Source: Candidatus Melainabacteria bacterium
GTDB lineage: Bacteria > Actinomycetota > Actinomycetes > Mycobacteriales > Pseudonocardiaceae
Direction of reading: 5' to 3'
DNA length: 64,000 nucleotides
Assembly: GCA_963780635.1 (NCBI GenBank)
Contig: CAWACW010000002.1
Span: 24,667-88,666, forward strand
The notes under the pieces were generated by a model. That model had not been told where the DNA came from, ran no database searches, and saw only the letters and a list, made by a program, of their open reading frames with translations. The translations under genes were made by a program, and so were the position numbers. This document shows positions 31,123 to 37,038 of the stretch, piece by piece. Position 1 is the stretch's first letter, and every line of letters starts with the position of its first letter.

Positions 31123-31368
31123 GTGCGTCGTTGCCTCATCGCGCATCGCACCGAATGGATTCAGCTGGACCGGCGACCTCGCCTGGTACGGCTGCTCGAC
31201 GACGCTGGCGTTGCCTCTGATCCGGGTGACCTGCCGGCCGTCTGCATGCGACCGGTGTTGATGCCCTCCGAGAACGTAGCCATCAACCACGACCGCGACG
31301 GAACTCCGATTCGACAGCGGGATCTGATGAGCGCGCTCTCAAAATTGCTGGGAGTATTAGTTGAGTGA
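31123..31368 (+). CDS. small hypothetical protein (81 aa)
   Basis: GAGGA plus GTG at 31123. The stop overlaps the TTG start of the methyltransferase by 8 nt. Only this 3' part of tracked ORF 30847..31368 looks coding. Confidence 0.3.
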   Translation: MRRCLIAHRTEWIQLDRRPRLVRLLDDAGVASDPGDLPAVCMRPVLMPSENVAINHDRDGTPIRQRDLMSALSKLLGVLVE

Positions 31369-32179
31369 CGACCTTGAGGATAACCCGCGCTGGACGCACG
31401 ACGGCGATATGACTTCTCCGAGCGCATCGCGCGTCTACGACGCATACCTCGGTGGTGGTAAGAACTTTGCGACAGACCGCCTGTTTGCCGCGTCCATTCA
31501 GTCGATATTGCCGGATGTTGGGGAGCTGGCTATCGCGAACCGCCGATTTCTTACACGCGCCGTAGAATACGCCGTCGGATGCGGCATCACTCAGATTATC
31601 GATATCGGCGCGGGTATTCCGTCGAGTGGCTCTACTCATCTAGCCGCTCATCGCCTCAATTCCACGGTTCGCGTTCTTTATGCCGATCACGAGGCGGTCG
31701 CGATTGAAGCGTTGCGGGCGAGTGCGGGCGGCGACCCACGCATCGGGGTGGTGAGGGCCGACGTGCGCGATGTGGACCAACTGCTGGGTGATCCTGTGGC
31801 GACTGCTCTTTTGGACCTCTCCGCGCCTGTGGTGCTCGTCATGGGCCTCTTGCTGCACTTCATACCCAATTCTGACAATCCGGCTCGCCTGCTCGACCAG
31901 TATCGGCAGGCGGTTGCGCGCGGCAGTGTCCTGGTTATCAGCCACGACACTGCGGACGGGCGCGAGCCAGAAATGCTGCGAGTGGCGCAGGCATACGCGG
32001 ACGCGGGTTGCCCGGTTGTCCTGCGCAGTCACCCAGAACTGGTGGCGCTCCTCGATGGCTGGGACTTGAAAGAACCGGGTGTCGTCCATGCCCCACTCTG
32101 GCGCCCGAATGCTGATGACTCCAGCATGAGCGACCCGAAATCAGCATGCGTCTATGCAGCCGTGGCGGTAGCCCCATGA
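31361..32179 (+). CDS. SAM-dependent methyltransferase, DUF574/Methyltransf_19 family
   Basis: Family hallmark ..ASRVYDAYLGGGKNFATDR.. and SAM motif IIDIGAGIPS. 272 aa. Confidence 0.8.
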   Translation: MSDDLEDNPRWTHDGDMTSPSASRVYDAYLGGGKNFATDRLFAASIQSILPDVGELAIANRRFLTRAVEYAVGCGITQIIDIGAGIPSSGSTHLAAHRLNSTVRVLYADHEAVAIEALRASAGGDPRIGVVRADVRDVDQLLGDPVATALLDLSAPVVLVMGLLLHFIPNSDNPARLLDQYRQAVARGSVLVISHDTADGREPEMLRVAQAYADAGCPVVLRSHPELVALLDGWDLKEPGVVHAPLWRPNADDSSMSDPKSACVYAAVAVAP

Positions 32180-32427
32180 AGCCGCTGCAGTCATCCGCCT
32201 TGATGATCTCCGAGCCTAACCATGACCACGCTGCCCGGCTTAATGACGCTCCTGCGAGCCTGAGCCAGGTAGCCGCCCCATGCAGCTGGAAGCATTATTG
32301 CGTGTACTTGGGCAAGGCGTGTGCTGGCTGCGGTCGGGTGTTCGACTCCGGCGAACTACCGGTCGCAATCGGCCCGTCTCCCCGTGGCCAACCGACGCGA
32401 TATCGGTGCCAATCGTGTCCCAAGTAG
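32176..32427 (+). CDS. small zinc-ribbon-like protein (83 aa)
   Basis: The ATG at 32176 overlaps the methyltransferase stop (ATGA). Cys pairs CAGCGRVF..YRCQSC plus CSWKHYC. Confidence 0.45.
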   Translation: MKPLQSSALMISEPNHDHAARLNDAPASLSQVAAPCSWKHYCVYLGKACAGCGRVFDSGELPVAIGPSPRGQPTRYRCQSCPK

Positions 32428-32778
32428 AGATAGCCCTCTTTTCGACCGCTACTGGACGAGAAGCTGCCATACGCGATCAATGTCCCGATCCGATATGCAT
32501 CCCGCCACGAGTCGTTGGCAACCGTGAACACAACCTGGAGACGAACGTGCGCTACACCTGTTGTTGGTGTCGCGGCAGGCTTTTGTGCGTTTGGTGCAAC
32601 GGTTGGTGTTGTGCCAGCTGCTGGTGGAAGGGCATCTGCCAGTGCTGCGAGGGTGAGGGCACCATGTCATCGCCCTGCAGCCCGAACCACTTGCACGAAC
32701 AGGAAGTCGCAGAAAGCAGTGTGCGGAACGATCCTGGCCTAGAGCCGGCCACTTCGGTCGACCAACGACCGACGGGCG

Positions 32779-33371
32779 TGCGATCAGCTATCGGTGCCAT
32801 CGCACTCTGTCTGGTCGTCGCTGCCGCACTGACTGGATGCGCCACTACCACCACCGGTATAGCCACGCGCACTACAAGCGGGCGTCCGGCCGTCAGGCAA
32901 CTGGCGATACCGCACGCACCGAAGGTTGTCCGGCCTCTCGACCCGTCCGCCATGGTGTCCGCACCGTGCACCTCACTAACCACGACCGAACTTGTAACTC
33001 TGGACGTCACCCGGCCGATAAGCGTTGCCCACAGCGCAACTGCTGGTACCCGTTGCACCTGGACGGGTGATTCCGGTGGCAGCGTGGGAGTGTCCTGGAT
33101 CTCCGCCGACAGCAACGGACTGTCTGACCTGTACGCACAACAGTCGATTTACGGATACTGGCAACCGACCTCCGTTGCCGGCTATCCAGCCGTGTATGGC
33201 GATCCGTTGGGTGATCAACGACCACACGGCGAATGTGTGCTGAACGTCGGGGCCAACGATCATCTGCTCTTCTTCGTTCAGTACGAGCGGCCGCTCGAGC
33301 CCGCGAAGGGTTGTCCGCTGGCGGCCTCGGCGGCGGCGGACGTGATCGCCAATCTGAAGGCGACGGCATGA
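32779..33371 (+). CDS. DUF3558-family lipoprotein (copy 1); the frame is open upstream to 32280 and includes a Cys/Trp-rich segment
   Basis: GTG at 32779 gives the lipoprotein signal MRSAIGAIALCLVVAAALTGC. The mature part carries the DUF3558 Cys pattern (PCTSLT..CTW..ECVLNVG..GCP). Alternative starts are 32664 (ATG) and 32547 (GTG with GGAG). Confidence 0.7.
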
Positions 33372-34393
33372 CGGTGTCGACGAGCGACGACGCGCGGGCG
33401 GCGGTCACGTCGCGGGTGATCAGCCTGCGACCAAGTTGGGGTCCGATTCTGATCGGACTTGTCGTAGCGGTCGCGCCGCCAACTGGATGCGCCACCAGCG
33501 CCTCCGGTACAGCGACGCCGTCGGTGGCAGATCATCGCCAGGCACCACCACAAGCGCACAAAGTCCCGTCATCAGGACAAGCACCCAAAGTCCAGAAGCC
33601 ATTGGATCCGACCGCCATGGTTGGCTCCCCATGCACATCTCTGACCATGGCCAACGTTCGCAACATCGGCATCGGCAGTGCGATGGCGAAAACCGACAAG
33701 GACACTCTCGGAAGCGGCTGCACGTGGGCAGGCGAGAGCGACGGCATCCTGAACATCAACTGGGAAACCATCAACAAGCGCGGGCTCGGCGATCTGTACA
33801 GCAACCAGTCCTCTTTCGCCTACTGGATCTCGACGACTCTCGGTGGATATCCGGGCGTGTACGCGGATCCAACCAGCGATGAGCGAGCGGCTGGCGACTG
33901 CCTGCTGAACGTCGGAGTTAACGCCCGCCTGACGTTCTTCATTGAATACAGCGACCCCCTGGAGCCGGATCTTGGGTGCCAGACCGCGGCGACAGCGGCA
34001 GCTGACGTGATCACCAATCTGAAGGCCGCACGCGTGATGGCGTTGATGACACCGCAAGTGACCCGTGCGAACTTCCACACCCTGGCCAGACGGACGCGAG
34101 GCTTCGCGCTCGCGCAGCCCAGGGCGCACGACTTGTACGACTGCTATCAGGGCGTCAGGGCTCGGTCCCTATGGAAGTTGGCCAATGGCATCCAGTCCGG
34201 GTGGCGCACTGATGCTGCCGACGCTGCGGGTCCGAGGTTGCCTCCTCTCGCCGTGAACCTGTTTCGCTGCCGGAACAACTCGCCCAACCGTCCAAGATCT
34301 GATCTCGCTTCAGGTCGTGAGATTCCATACCGCGGTGACCGAGTTGGTCTCATCCTGCACATCCGATCGCAGTTCACTAGTGGAGCATCGTGA
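33368..34393 (+). CDS. DUF3558-family lipoprotein (copy 2); 3' end uncertain
   Basis: The ATG at 33368 overlaps the copy-1 stop (ATGA). Lipobox PPTGC, and the same Cys pattern (PCTSLT..CTW..DCLLNVG..GCQ). Homology to copy 1 ends at ..DVITNLKAA (about 34030), but the frame stays open to the TGA at 34391-34393, which overlaps the cvnA GTG. Confidence 0.65.
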   Translation: MTVSTSDDARAAVTSRVISLRPSWGPILIGLVVAVAPPTGCATSASGTATPSVADHRQAPPQAHKVPSSGQAPKVQKPLDPTAMVGSPCTSLTMANVRNIGIGSAMAKTDKDTLGSGCTWAGESDGILNINWETINKRGLGDLYSNQSSFAYWISTTLGGYPGVYADPTSDERAAGDCLLNVGVNARLTFFIEYSDPLEPDLGCQTAATAAADVITNLKAARVMALMTPQVTRANFHTLARRTRGFALAQPRAHDLYDCYQGVRARSLWKLANGIQSGWRTDAADAAGPRLPPLAVNLFRCRNNSPNRPRSDLASGREIPYRGDRVGLILHIRSQFTSGAS

Positions 34394-37038
34394 CGAAACA
34401 CGCCTCCGATCAGCCCCGGTCGCGCTGGAAGTTGCTCCGTCCCAACCAGGTCGTGTCGATCAAGAGGCGGGTCATCCGGGTCGCGCTCATCCCCGACACT
34501 GCGTTGATCCTGCTATGGGTTTTGGCGTTTCTGTATCTGGGCGGCACTGGCTTCTACGACCAGAAGGTGGCCAGCAGTGTGCGGGAGGTTTCGATCCCGG
34601 CTGTCACCGGGTTGTCGTCCGTAGAGACGGAAAGTCAGCTGAGCCAGGCGTACCTGGCCAACCGGCAGAGCGGCCTCCAGCGCTTGCTGTCGCAGCAGAA
34701 GCAGACCGACCGGGGGCTGTCCGCGATGCGGGCGGCCGCTGGTGACGCGTTGGCACATGCACCGCAGTCGATCGTGACCAGGATGGACACGCTGGTCGGC
34801 TACATTGACCAACTGCCCGACGTCCGCGGCCGCGTCGACGCCGGGATTGCCACAACGTCGGAGGTCGCGACGTTCTATGGCCAACTGCTGGACGCGGCGA
34901 CCGATCTGTTCGGCGATCAGGCCCGGGTTGTTCCAGACGCCTCCGTCGTGCCCGGAGCGATCGCTGCCACCGCCGTGTTCCACATCACTGACTTAGCCGC
35001 CCGAGCGGGCTCGTTGATCTCAGGTGCCCTGGCTGCGGGCAGACTCGACGAGGCCGACTACCTCGAGTTCGCCAACCTGGTCGGGGCCTACCACGCTCTG
35101 CTCAGCACGACCGCGCCGGACCTGCGGCCCGATGTCCAAATCAGTTACCGCACGCTCACCGGCACCGCAGCGTGGCGCGGCTTGGTCGCCGCAGAGGACG
35201 CGATCATCGTGCGCGGTCCGTGGTCGGGCGGAGTGCCGCCCGATCTGCCCGTCACTGCTGTGTCCTGGCAGAGCCTGACCGGCAGGGTCAACACCGCGCT
35301 GACCGACATGACGATCACCCAGGCCGACCAAGTCTCGGCGCAAGCCTTGTCCGACGGCAACCACCAGCTGATCGAACTGGGCATCGTATTGGCGGCCGCG
35401 CTGGTGGTGGTCGTCGGCTCGATCTGGTGGGCTCGGCGGCAGTCCACGCAGTTGGTGGACAGCGCACTGGTGACCCGGTTGGGCCATTTGCGCCAGGATG
35501 CCCAGGACCTGGTCGGCACACAGCTGCCCGCCATCGTCGAGCGGTTGCGCGCGGGCGAAGCGGTGGACATCGAGGACGAGCTGGGGAAACTGCGCTACGG
35601 CGCGGGTAACGGAGACGGCGAGGCCATTGAGGGCGATGAGATCGATCAGGTTGCCGTAGCCATTAATGACGTGCTTCGCCAGGCCGCTACGTCCGCTGCT
35701 GGCGAAGCGCAGTCCCGAAACGCGTTCCGCGTCGCGTTTCAGGGGATCGCGCGGCGCAACCTGCGTCCACTGTCCCAACTGCTCGCCTTGCTGGACAAGC
35801 TGGAGCACTCCGAGCAGGATCCCGAGTCACTCAAGCGGCTGTACGATCTGGACCACGAAGCGACCCGCGCCCGCCGCGGCGCTGAGAACCTGATCATCTT
35901 GTCCGGCGGCAGTCTGCACCAGCATCTGCCTGGGCCAATCCGGATACTGGCGATTCTGCGCTCTGCCATCTCCGAGACTAGCGACTACCGCCGTGTGAAG
36001 TTGACGGCGGTGCCCGATGTCGCCATCGCCCGGGACGCCGTGAAGGTCGTGATTCACCTGCTCGCGGAGTTGCTGGACAACGCGGCAACCTTCTCCCGGT
36101 CCCACGAGGTGCGAGTCAGCAGCAGGCAAGTGCCGAGCGGCATCATCATCGAAGTCGATGACTGCGGCGTCGGCATCAACCCCGAACGCATGCAACAAGT
36201 GAACGAGATGTTGGCCAACCCGCCCGAGGAGGACGTGACGGCCATCGGTGACGGGTCCCAGCTGGGATTCTGGGTGATCGCCTCGTTGATCAGGCGGTTC
36301 AGATTCAGGGTTCAGCTGCAGGACTCTCCCTACGGTGGCGTCCAGGCGGTAGTCCTCGTCCCCAACAAGCTGCTAGCCGGTACCAGCGCGCTCCCCGACG
36401 GGGCGGCGATCAAGGGCGTGGGCGGAGCTCACTGGGGCGCCCGCGCCCTCCCCGCGGCGGCACCAAGTGACTTGCACGAGCCGCCGACCGACGCCGACCC
36501 CGAGGCGACCAGCCAGATGCCGCCCATCGACACGCCGGAGGCGGCCGCGGTGGGCTCCCCTACCGCAGCCGATGCGCTGCCACGCCGGCAGCCGGGAATC
36601 CAGACCGGCAGGAATCCACACGGCAGCACGACGCAAGCCGGCCCGGCATCGCCGATAGCCCTCGCGGACGGCGGGACCAGCGGGCGGAACTGGCCCCCGG
36701 CTGAGAGCCAACGCCGGGACCCGGCTCACGCGCCGTCGGGGCCCGACGTGGTGGCGCCCAGCGGCACCCCTCGGTGGCCCACCGCCCACGAGGCGAATGA
36801 GCAGGCATCGGGCACGTTGCCTGCACTGCCGCGGCGATCACCCGGTACGCAACTGCACGACTCGCTCAGGGAGCAGCCAGCGGGTGAGCAGCGGATCGGC
36901 AGTGAGCGTGACGCAAGCGGATCCATGGCTCCAGTGGGCAGTCAGCTGTCGGCATTCCAACGCGGTTCGGTCGCCGGGCGCAGCGCCGGGGCAAACCACG
37001 AAGTTTTTCCGAGGACGAGGGCAGGCGAGGACGGATGA
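34390..37038 (+). CDS. cvnA: conservon sensor histidine-kinase-like protein CvnA (NIT/HAMP/HATPase)
   Basis: 882 aa with an N-terminal TM, a nitrate/nitrite-sensing-type region, a second TM, the N-box LLAELLDNAATFS, DDCGVGINPERM and a Pro-rich tail. It heads the cvnBCD genes. Confidence 0.88.
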   Translation: MTKHASDQPRSRWKLLRPNQVVSIKRRVIRVALIPDTALILLWVLAFLYLGGTGFYDQKVASSVREVSIPAVTGLSSVETESQLSQAYLANRQSGLQRLLSQQKQTDRGLSAMRAAAGDALAHAPQSIVTRMDTLVGYIDQLPDVRGRVDAGIATTSEVATFYGQLLDAATDLFGDQARVVPDASVVPGAIAATAVFHITDLAARAGSLISGALAAGRLDEADYLEFANLVGAYHALLSTTAPDLRPDVQISYRTLTGTAAWRGLVAAEDAIIVRGPWSGGVPPDLPVTAVSWQSLTGRVNTALTDMTITQADQVSAQALSDGNHQLIELGIVLAAALVVVVGSIWWARRQSTQLVDSALVTRLGHLRQDAQDLVGTQLPAIVERLRAGEAVDIEDELGKLRYGAGNGDGEAIEGDEIDQVAVAINDVLRQAATSAAGEAQSRNAFRVAFQGIARRNLRPLSQLLALLDKLEHSEQDPESLKRLYDLDHEATRARRGAENLIILSGGSLHQHLPGPIRILAILRSAISETSDYRRVKLTAVPDVAIARDAVKVVIHLLAELLDNAATFSRSHEVRVSSRQVPSGIIIEVDDCGVGINPERMQQVNEMLANPPEEDVTAIGDGSQLGFWVIASLIRRFRFRVQLQDSPYGGVQAVVLVPNKLLAGTSALPDGAAIKGVGGAHWGARALPAAAPSDLHEPPTDADPEATSQMPPIDTPEAAAVGSPTAADALPRRQPGIQTGRNPHGSTTQAGPASPIALADGGTSGRNWPPAESQRRDPAHAPSGPDVVAPSGTPRWPTAHEANEQASGTLPALPRRSPGTQLHDSLREQPAGEQRIGSERDASGSMAPVGSQLSAFQRGSVAGRSAGANHEVFPRTRAGEDG

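Follow-up and report, generated by a model that had tools for sequence, protein, structure and literature searches.

In this study, we analyzed a Cys/Trp-rich reading frame that lies ahead of a DUF3558 lipoprotein gene in a window of 64,000 nucleotides (the whole stretch of DNA under analysis), and sequence comparison suggested that the segment is probably a stretch of spacer or leader DNA, specific to the lineage and low in GC3, whose frame is conceptual and unselected. Under this interpretation, an untranslated spacer or 5' leader of about 350 nt between orf83 and the lipoprotein gene (DUF3558a) would contain the 117-nt stretch, within a recently assembled gene array of low GC3, and DUF3558a would start at GTG 32778 and yield a prolipoprotein of 197 residues whose signal peptide and lipobox are normal. 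The dinucleotide TG would stand in a fixed three-base phase, giving TGN codons (Cys/Trp) in one register and NTG codons (Leu/Val) one base on; the near-absence of A from the stretch would keep the frame free of stops, and the open Cys frame would be in register with the lipoprotein gene by happenstance. We infer that the stretch is not translated into a functional domain. By analogy with 49 shadow cases in the same genome, the TG phasing may be what remains of a Leu/Val-rich coding sequence, short or decayed, in the frame one base on.

Among the options that the initial annotation had placed side by side, non-coding sequence that mimics a motif is the one favoured here, given that conservation was lacking and that relatives start at the signal peptide. 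The practical outcome is a corrected gene model for DUF3558a. The case also carries a caution for scans of high-GC actinomycete genomes: Cys/Trp frames with CxxC motifs arise by the dozens per genome as off-register readings of TG-phased sequence, and because they are this frequent, conservation or expression data are required before domains are called. The features of the region are listed below.

32176 to 32427, plus strand: orf83, encoding a small protein of zinc-ribbon-like type (CxxC...CxxC), the final clear gene ahead of the gap
32428 to 32777, plus strand: gap from orf83 to DUF3558a, 350 nt, read as spacer or 5' leader
32537 to 32540, plus strand: GGAG, Shine-Dalgarno-like as read from the sequence, 6 nt before GTG 32547
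32547 to 32663, plus strand: Cys/Trp-rich conceptual frame, 39 codons with 11 Cys, 5 Trp and 16 TGN codons
32557 to 32579, plus strand: weak terminator-like hairpin, 8 pairs including 4 G-C, followed by CTTTTGTGCG
32561 to 32656, plus strand: alternative frame one base on, TTG...TGA, 31 codons, (M)LVSRQAFVRLVQRLVLCQLLVEGHLPVLRG, Leu/Val-rich with NTG codons
32664 to 32666, plus strand: in-frame ATG with GAGGG before it at 32655-32659, start of the public gene call (235 aa)
32778 to 33371, plus strand: DUF3558a lipoprotein gene, Pfam PF12079 (E = 2.9e-20), 197 aa from GTG 32778
33368 to 34012, plus strand: second DUF3558 copy (DUF3558b), Pfam PF12079 (E = 1.6e-18)

Sequence and Composition of the Cys/Trp-Rich Frame

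Translation of 32547-32663 on the plus strand (117 nt) gave VRYTCCWCRGRLLCVWCNGWCCASCWWKGICQCCEGEGT, which opens with GTG at 32547-32549 and holds 11 Cys, as the initial annotation had it; its count of 6 Trp was one too many. The four CxxC units were likewise recovered (C5-C8, C14-C17, C22-C25, and C31-C34), comprising two CxxCxG, one CxxCxxxG and one full CxxCxGxG, with xG after three of the four, and in the translation they recur about every 9 residues. Three Cys-Cys pairs (residues 5-6, 21-22, and 33-34) and one Trp-Trp pair were present, and residues 1-39 contained no His. The GGAG said to precede the GTG does so, at a distance of 6 nt rather than 8. The frame runs on into the DUF3558 gene as described, the first stop being that of the gene end at 33371, and of the later candidate starts ATG 32664 was given correctly while 32779 was off by one, the codon being GTG 32778. 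The octamer GCTGGTGG at 32620-32627 inside the segment is the E. coli Chi sequence, which has no known meaning in actinomycetes, and its occurrence here is probably a coincidence.

The assembly (7.5 Mb in 25 contigs, 90.6% complete) has a GC content of 69.7%. GC by codon position was 0.71/0.49/0.92 in the high-GC3 training ORFs of the genome and 0.36/0.72/0.77 in the Cys frame, the first position being the odd one, and the third positions of the Cys frame contained no A. The low GC3 that had been ascribed to the segment holds in comparison with the high-GC3 training ORFs of the genome (0.92), but not with the neighbouring genes, for which GC3 was 0.66 (methyltransferase), 0.69 (orf83), 0.66 (DUF3558a), and 0.72 (DUF3558b) against 0.77 in the segment. 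Similarly, the T-ending codons described as unusual for this genome are not so for the locus, with a share of 0.23 in the segment compared with 0.23 in the methyltransferase gene, 0.19 in orf83, and 0.18 in DUF3558a. Cys and Trp made up 28 and 13% of the segment, respectively, vs. 0.76 and 1.46% in the ORFs of the genome. Between 32664 and 32777, the lipoprotein frame had the best codon score of the six (-0.28, equal to that of real neighbour genes), a result from 38 codons only that points against a spacer. Codon-usage scoring does not discriminate here, since GC3 is atypical (about 0.66) throughout the locus.

Motif and TG-Phase Statistics

Shuffling the residues of the segment (11 Cys in 39) produced a mean of 2.7 CxxC units against the 4 observed (P = 0.24); four CxxC are what the Cys density leads one to expect. 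In such shuffles, one full CxxCxGxG had P = 0.035 and three CxxCxG had P = 0.002, the latter for a pattern that was chosen post hoc. At the nucleotide level, the TG dinucleotides of the segment were distributed 16/2/2 over the three phases (16/20 in one codon phase), and at least 11 Cys in a stop-free frame arose in only about 1e-4 of dinucleotide-preserving shuffles of the segment. The period-3 TG structure is real and non-random, and plain non-coding DNA does not explain it. The periodicity is silent, however, on which register matters, if any.

A six-frame scan of the genome returned about 470 stop-free windows of 39 codons with at least 11 Cys, and 56 loci had a stop-free window of that length with at least 10 Cys together with at least 3 Trp. 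At 49 of the 55 loci other than the present one, a long Leu/Val-rich ORF (164 to 1,133 codons, GC3 0.79-1.0) lay one base on; the other six were antisense to a long ORF with high GC3. Off-frame readings rich in Cys and Trp are commonplace in this genome. The present segment resembles these shadow frames of Leu/Val-rich genes in its phased TG, its Cys/Trp/Arg-rich peptide and its run of about 40 codons free of stops. It differs in that the frame one base on, which reads LLLVSRQAFVRLVQRLVLCQLLVEGHLPVLRG, is open for 42 codons only, and in that the Cys/Trp frame shares the register of the lipoprotein gene and possesses a start codon with a Shine-Dalgarno sequence. It is the sole one of the 56 loci with no long ORF in another frame, which points against the preferred reading as an unselected frame in spacer DNA. 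The most Cys-rich open windows of the genome, on contig C11 near 660,380 (MACCC...) and contig C13 near 67,573 (KPCGC...), both outside the window, read as regular repeats and may be real repeat proteins or shadows of repeats.

Homology Searches

The homology query was the 78-residue N-terminal stretch up to the signal peptide. Conservation of the Cys spacing, which the initial annotation had proposed to examine by tblastn, was not borne out: the search of 200 genomes of the family yielded no relative and chance-level matches only, many of them interrupted by internal stops, as was the best one (E = 4.4e-4 per genome). Homologous loci lack the Cys pattern, which largely agrees with the outcome that the initial annotation expected were its motif reading wrong; no true ortholog of the locus was found. 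Among 5.8 billion clustered proteins, the sole match was the window's own 235-aa product, and phmmer against 1.84 billion representatives gave 0 matches at E <= 0.001. No relative was found in genome and metagenome contigs searched with back-translated patterns including WCCASCWW, and no match in the plasmid collection. Pfam, NCBIfam, and PDB gave no significant match (best PDB E = 0.85). The 274-aa frame had no zinc-finger or DnaJ match in Pfam at E <= 0.1, and the gap peptides in all six frames matched no Pfam family of any kind at E <= 1. AlphaFold2 run from the single sequence returned a pLDDT of 34 throughout, the genuine DUF3558 domain included.

Translation Start of DUF3558a

DUF3558a scored 73.4 bits against PF12079, above the gathering cut-off of 34.1. 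Read from GTG 32778, the protein starts with MRSAIGAIALCLVVAAALTG, directly followed by the C of the lipobox LTGC at 32829-32840, and it carries a lipoprotein signal and lipobox with no extra N-terminal domain. Its nearest relative in the 5.8 billion proteins is a paralog in the same genome (contig 13, 62% identity, 197 aa); the remaining relatives in the protein collection share at most 56% identity and are mostly 197-214 aa long. A length of 197 aa equals that of the paralog and is the commonest among the database relatives. The 13 genus-level homologs with a readable 5' end, paralog included, displayed a short basic n-region, a hydrophobic core, and a lipobox Cys. We aligned 13 database relatives, namely the in-genome paralog and 12 others, and 0/13 covered residues 1-77 of the long frame, all beginning 1-10 residues before the hydrophobic core, while the lipobox Cys, residue 98 of the long frame, was invariant. 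At two database loci, DUF3558 and the gene ahead of it (171 or 182 aa) share 4 nt, start over stop, and an extension would find no space there. As judged from these alignments, the signal peptide is the start in all DUF3558 relatives examined, and the start of DUF3558a is most likely GTG 32778 (197 aa), neither the public ATG 32664 nor GTG 32547. The poor Shine-Dalgarno sequence read ahead of GTG 32778 counts against this picture of an untranslated gap.

The second copy is 47% identical to the first, and its start overlaps the DUF3558a stop (ATGA). DUF3558 (PF12079) lipoproteins are known from ESX/type VII-associated cassettes, and the downstream gene here is a clear member of this family. The usual context is translationally coupled, with a protein of 170-182 aa, DUF3558 (197-199 aa), a PPE-like protein and, in one case, EspG; of the two database loci mentioned above, at least one has a PPE-like gene after DUF3558, and that one also has EspG. 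The same cassette surrounds the in-genome paralog and its genus orthologs. Such a context fits a report that, in M. abscessus, DUF3558 genes and ESX substrates are co-expressed (PMC13491425). For the upstream 170-182-aa cassette protein, the records of the two database loci list no Pfam family; the protein ends in ...HLTE.QW.RLA.G (L019 809-2767; L010; L071; L072). The present locus differs from the cassette in having two DUF3558 copies between a methyltransferase/zinc-ribbon pair and a conservon, and an unusual 350-nt gap ahead of the first copy.

Gene Array and Origin of the Gap

The neighbours of the segment are an XRE-type HTH gene, a methyltransferase gene, orf83, the second DUF3558 copy, and cvnA to cvnD. 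The ATG of orf83 overlaps the methyltransferase stop (ATGA). We regard orf83 as a real gene: its homologs, about 50% identical and found in one genome of the same genus, each adjoin an XRE-type HTH regulator gene. No Pfam family matched orf83, and its hit to the NCBIfam model ECs_2282_CxxC was weak (E = 0.11, below cut-off); it may represent an as yet unnamed family of small zinc ribbons associated with HTH regulators. Immediately next to one orf83 homolog (L055 1-1370; G008:C33) lies a CRISPR-like array, in which a 36-nt repeat, GTGATTCCGGCCGACAAGGCCGGACTCCATTGAGGC, occurs in at least 18 copies at a spacing of 71-79 nt, with one spacer duplicated exactly.

The methyltransferase gene, orf83, and the two DUF3558 copies (31361-34012) form a block of low GC3 (0.66-0.72) directly upstream of the conservon, whose cvnA lies at 34390-37038 and has orthologs of 56-74% identity in three genomes of the same genus. 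In the upstream stretches examined, the three genomes carry unrelated genes, with no methyltransferase, orf83, or DUF3558, and the block looks like a lineage-specific insertion. The junctions of the array at 32176 and 33368 are tight overlaps, among which an untranslated gap of 350 nt stands out, a point against reading it as a spacer.

Several other origins of the gap sequence were considered and rejected. First, a structured RNA or riboswitch found no backing, with 0 Rfam matches at E <= 1 over 31500-33500 on both strands, and the fold of 32520-32680 was no better than that of shuffles (z = -0.22 on one strand, +0.69 on the other); the scan for terminator-like hairpins found 1 vs. 0.5 expected in shuffles. 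Second, a tandem or trinucleotide-repeat origin was dismissed, as Tandem Repeats Finder reported nothing at score 30 and the internal repeats of the segment amount to a single weak 16-nt pair, 39 nt apart; nor is the gap a copy of a repeat or mobile element, having no second copy in the genome. Third, a minus-strand gene in the Ala/Pro/Thr-rich frame was rejected on its GC3 of 0.36 and the lack of a start upstream of 32531, and the 78-aa minus-strand ORF at 32295-32531 ends short of the segment and is antisense to orf83, which has homologs. Finally, relics of known genes were sought. For a paralogous gene, the pieces of all six frames were compared with the genome by tblastn, and no match fell below E = 0.019; the same search with no composition correction gave low-complexity noise only. 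For the 170-182-aa gene that usually abuts DUF3558, neither the profile nor tblastn scored above noise. A truncated orf83 tail was also rejected, since the homologs end 15-26 residues past the second CxxC and nothing is missing.

Alternative Interpretations

The alternative that survives best, though we judge it unlikely from the sequence comparisons above, is a real lineage-specific N-terminal extension, in which translation would start at GTG 32547 and give a protein of 274 residues. Its first 40 residues or so would form two Cys4 metal sites (C5/C8/C14/C17 and C22/C25/C31/C34) in the cytoplasm, and the old signal peptide would serve as a membrane anchor, or cleavage at the lipobox would set the Cys-rich part free. 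Were the zinc-finger reading true, the locus would join an orphan module for metal binding to a lipoprotein of type VII association and offer a clean case of a domain born de novo. In its favour, GTG 32547 is the first canonical in-frame start past orf83 and its GGAG is well placed, and the whole gap is open in this frame (P about 0.02 in shuffles), both of which also count against an untranslated spacer. The regular CxxC spacing, the threefold CxxCxG with its post hoc P value, and the in-frame GC3 of 0.77 with A-free third positions are further points for an extension, as are the best codon score of this frame over 32664-32777, the public gene call that already takes the protein back to ATG 32664, and the weak Shine-Dalgarno sequence at 32778 in an array that is otherwise tightly joined. 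Against it, none of the collections searched held a homolog, all DUF3558 relatives examined lack the extension, no zinc-finger or DnaJ_CXXCXGXG family of Pfam matched, and the Trp content and first-position GC are unlike those of the real proteins of the genome. Moreover, a net-acidic segment of 77 residues ahead of a lipoprotein signal peptide is atypical for Sec/Lsp signals.

Comparison with known systems bears on the same alternative. The initial annotation had suggested a DnaJ-like cytoplasmic zinc finger fused to DUF3558, which found no support, as no profile or sequence relative was obtained and the DUF3558 relatives examined have no N-terminal extension. The DnaJ Cys-rich domain (PF00684) has four CxxCxGxG units and two zinc centres; the likeness lies in the four CxxC of the segment, three of them with xG, whereas only one is a full CxxCxGxG, no profile match was obtained, and there is no J domain, DUF3558 being the sole domain in the frame. 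In E. coli DnaJ the four units extend across about 57 residues, from Cys144 to Cys200, and here they fall within 34 residues of a segment with 13% Trp. The anti-sigma-like topology that had been put forward fared no better. ZAS anti-sigma factors have a cytoplasmic HxxxCxxC, one transmembrane helix and an outer domain, an arrangement that the protein would resemble in its hypothetical topology if started at 32547. The Cys segment, however, has no His for the ZAS motif and no anti-sigma domain match was found; what would be the transmembrane helix is the signal peptide of a lipoprotein, lipobox included. Among the genes read from 29.5 to 38.4 kb, which are part of the ORFs of the region, no sigma factor gene was seen and no ECF sigma gene is adjacent.

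A newly born orphan module, rich in Cys and Trp, is quite unlikely in our estimation. It would be a double-Cys4 metal or redox tail of about 40 residues, or else would be carried by a long, cleaved signal peptide, and the lipoprotein would have gained it by capturing the upstream frame in a recently assembled array. If true, a bacterial domain would here have arisen de novo in a way that can be dated, which is rare.

It is also improbable that the translated product is a small Leu/Val-rich ORF in the neighbouring frame, of which the Cys/Trp frame would be the off-register shadow. Such an ORF would account for the TG phase, it would place the locus with the 49 of 55 other Cys/Trp-rich windows that are shadows of this very type, and its GC profile over the codon positions (0.76/0.34/0.74) is shaped as is usual for coding sequence; the predicted 31-aa product is amphipathic or hydrophobic. 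The opening from stop to stop, on the other hand, is just 42 codons, there is no ATG and no Shine-Dalgarno sequence near the TTG or GTG starts, and five codons are TTG, which is rare in the genome (7 per 1000). A-initial codons number 0/33 vs. about 17% as estimated from the amino-acid frequencies of the genome, and neither Pfam nor NCBIfam contained a family match.

We give little credence to a translated regulatory leader, in which the speed of the ribosome over 11 Cys and 5 Trp codons would sense Cys or Trp and set downstream expression. Polycysteine leaderless short ORFs have been described in mycobacteria upstream of operons for cysteine metabolism (Canestrari et al., bioRxiv 10.1101/834739), and the present locus, also in an actinobacterium, shares with them runs of Cys codons ahead of an operon. 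In mycobacteria a pair of adjacent Cys codons is enough (bioRxiv 10.1101/834739), a number reached here by the three Cys-Cys pairs, to which the Trp-Trp pair may be added. The predicted fold also pairs the Shine-Dalgarno sequence and ATG at 32664, but as a fold it does not exceed shuffles (z = -0.22). Unlike those short ORFs, the frame lacks its own stop and continues into the lipoprotein gene, so that it is not a separate short ORF; for want of a stop, the separate mini-protein once proposed for this frame is likewise impossible. A TANNNT-like -10 box at leaderless distance is absent and a Shine-Dalgarno sequence is present instead, the downstream genes encode DUF3558 lipoproteins and a conservon rather than Cys or Trp metabolism, and there is no conservation.

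Least probable of all, and very hard to credit, is a small secreted peptide encoded by the 75-codon ORF of the third plus-strand frame (TTG 32515 to TAG 32742), whose translation does resemble a signal peptide, TWRRTCATPVVGVAAGFCAFGATVGVVPAAGGRASASAA (RR n-region, Gly/Val/Ala hydrophobic core, then ASA), but which has a segment GC3 (0.34) far lower than that of even the local genes, no homolog in the 200 family genomes and no match in Pfam or NCBIfam. The product of 32515-32742 on the plus strand resembles a twin-arginine or Sec signal peptide (TWRRT..VVGVAAGFCAFGATVGVV..ASA), and the ORF is probably another shadow frame.
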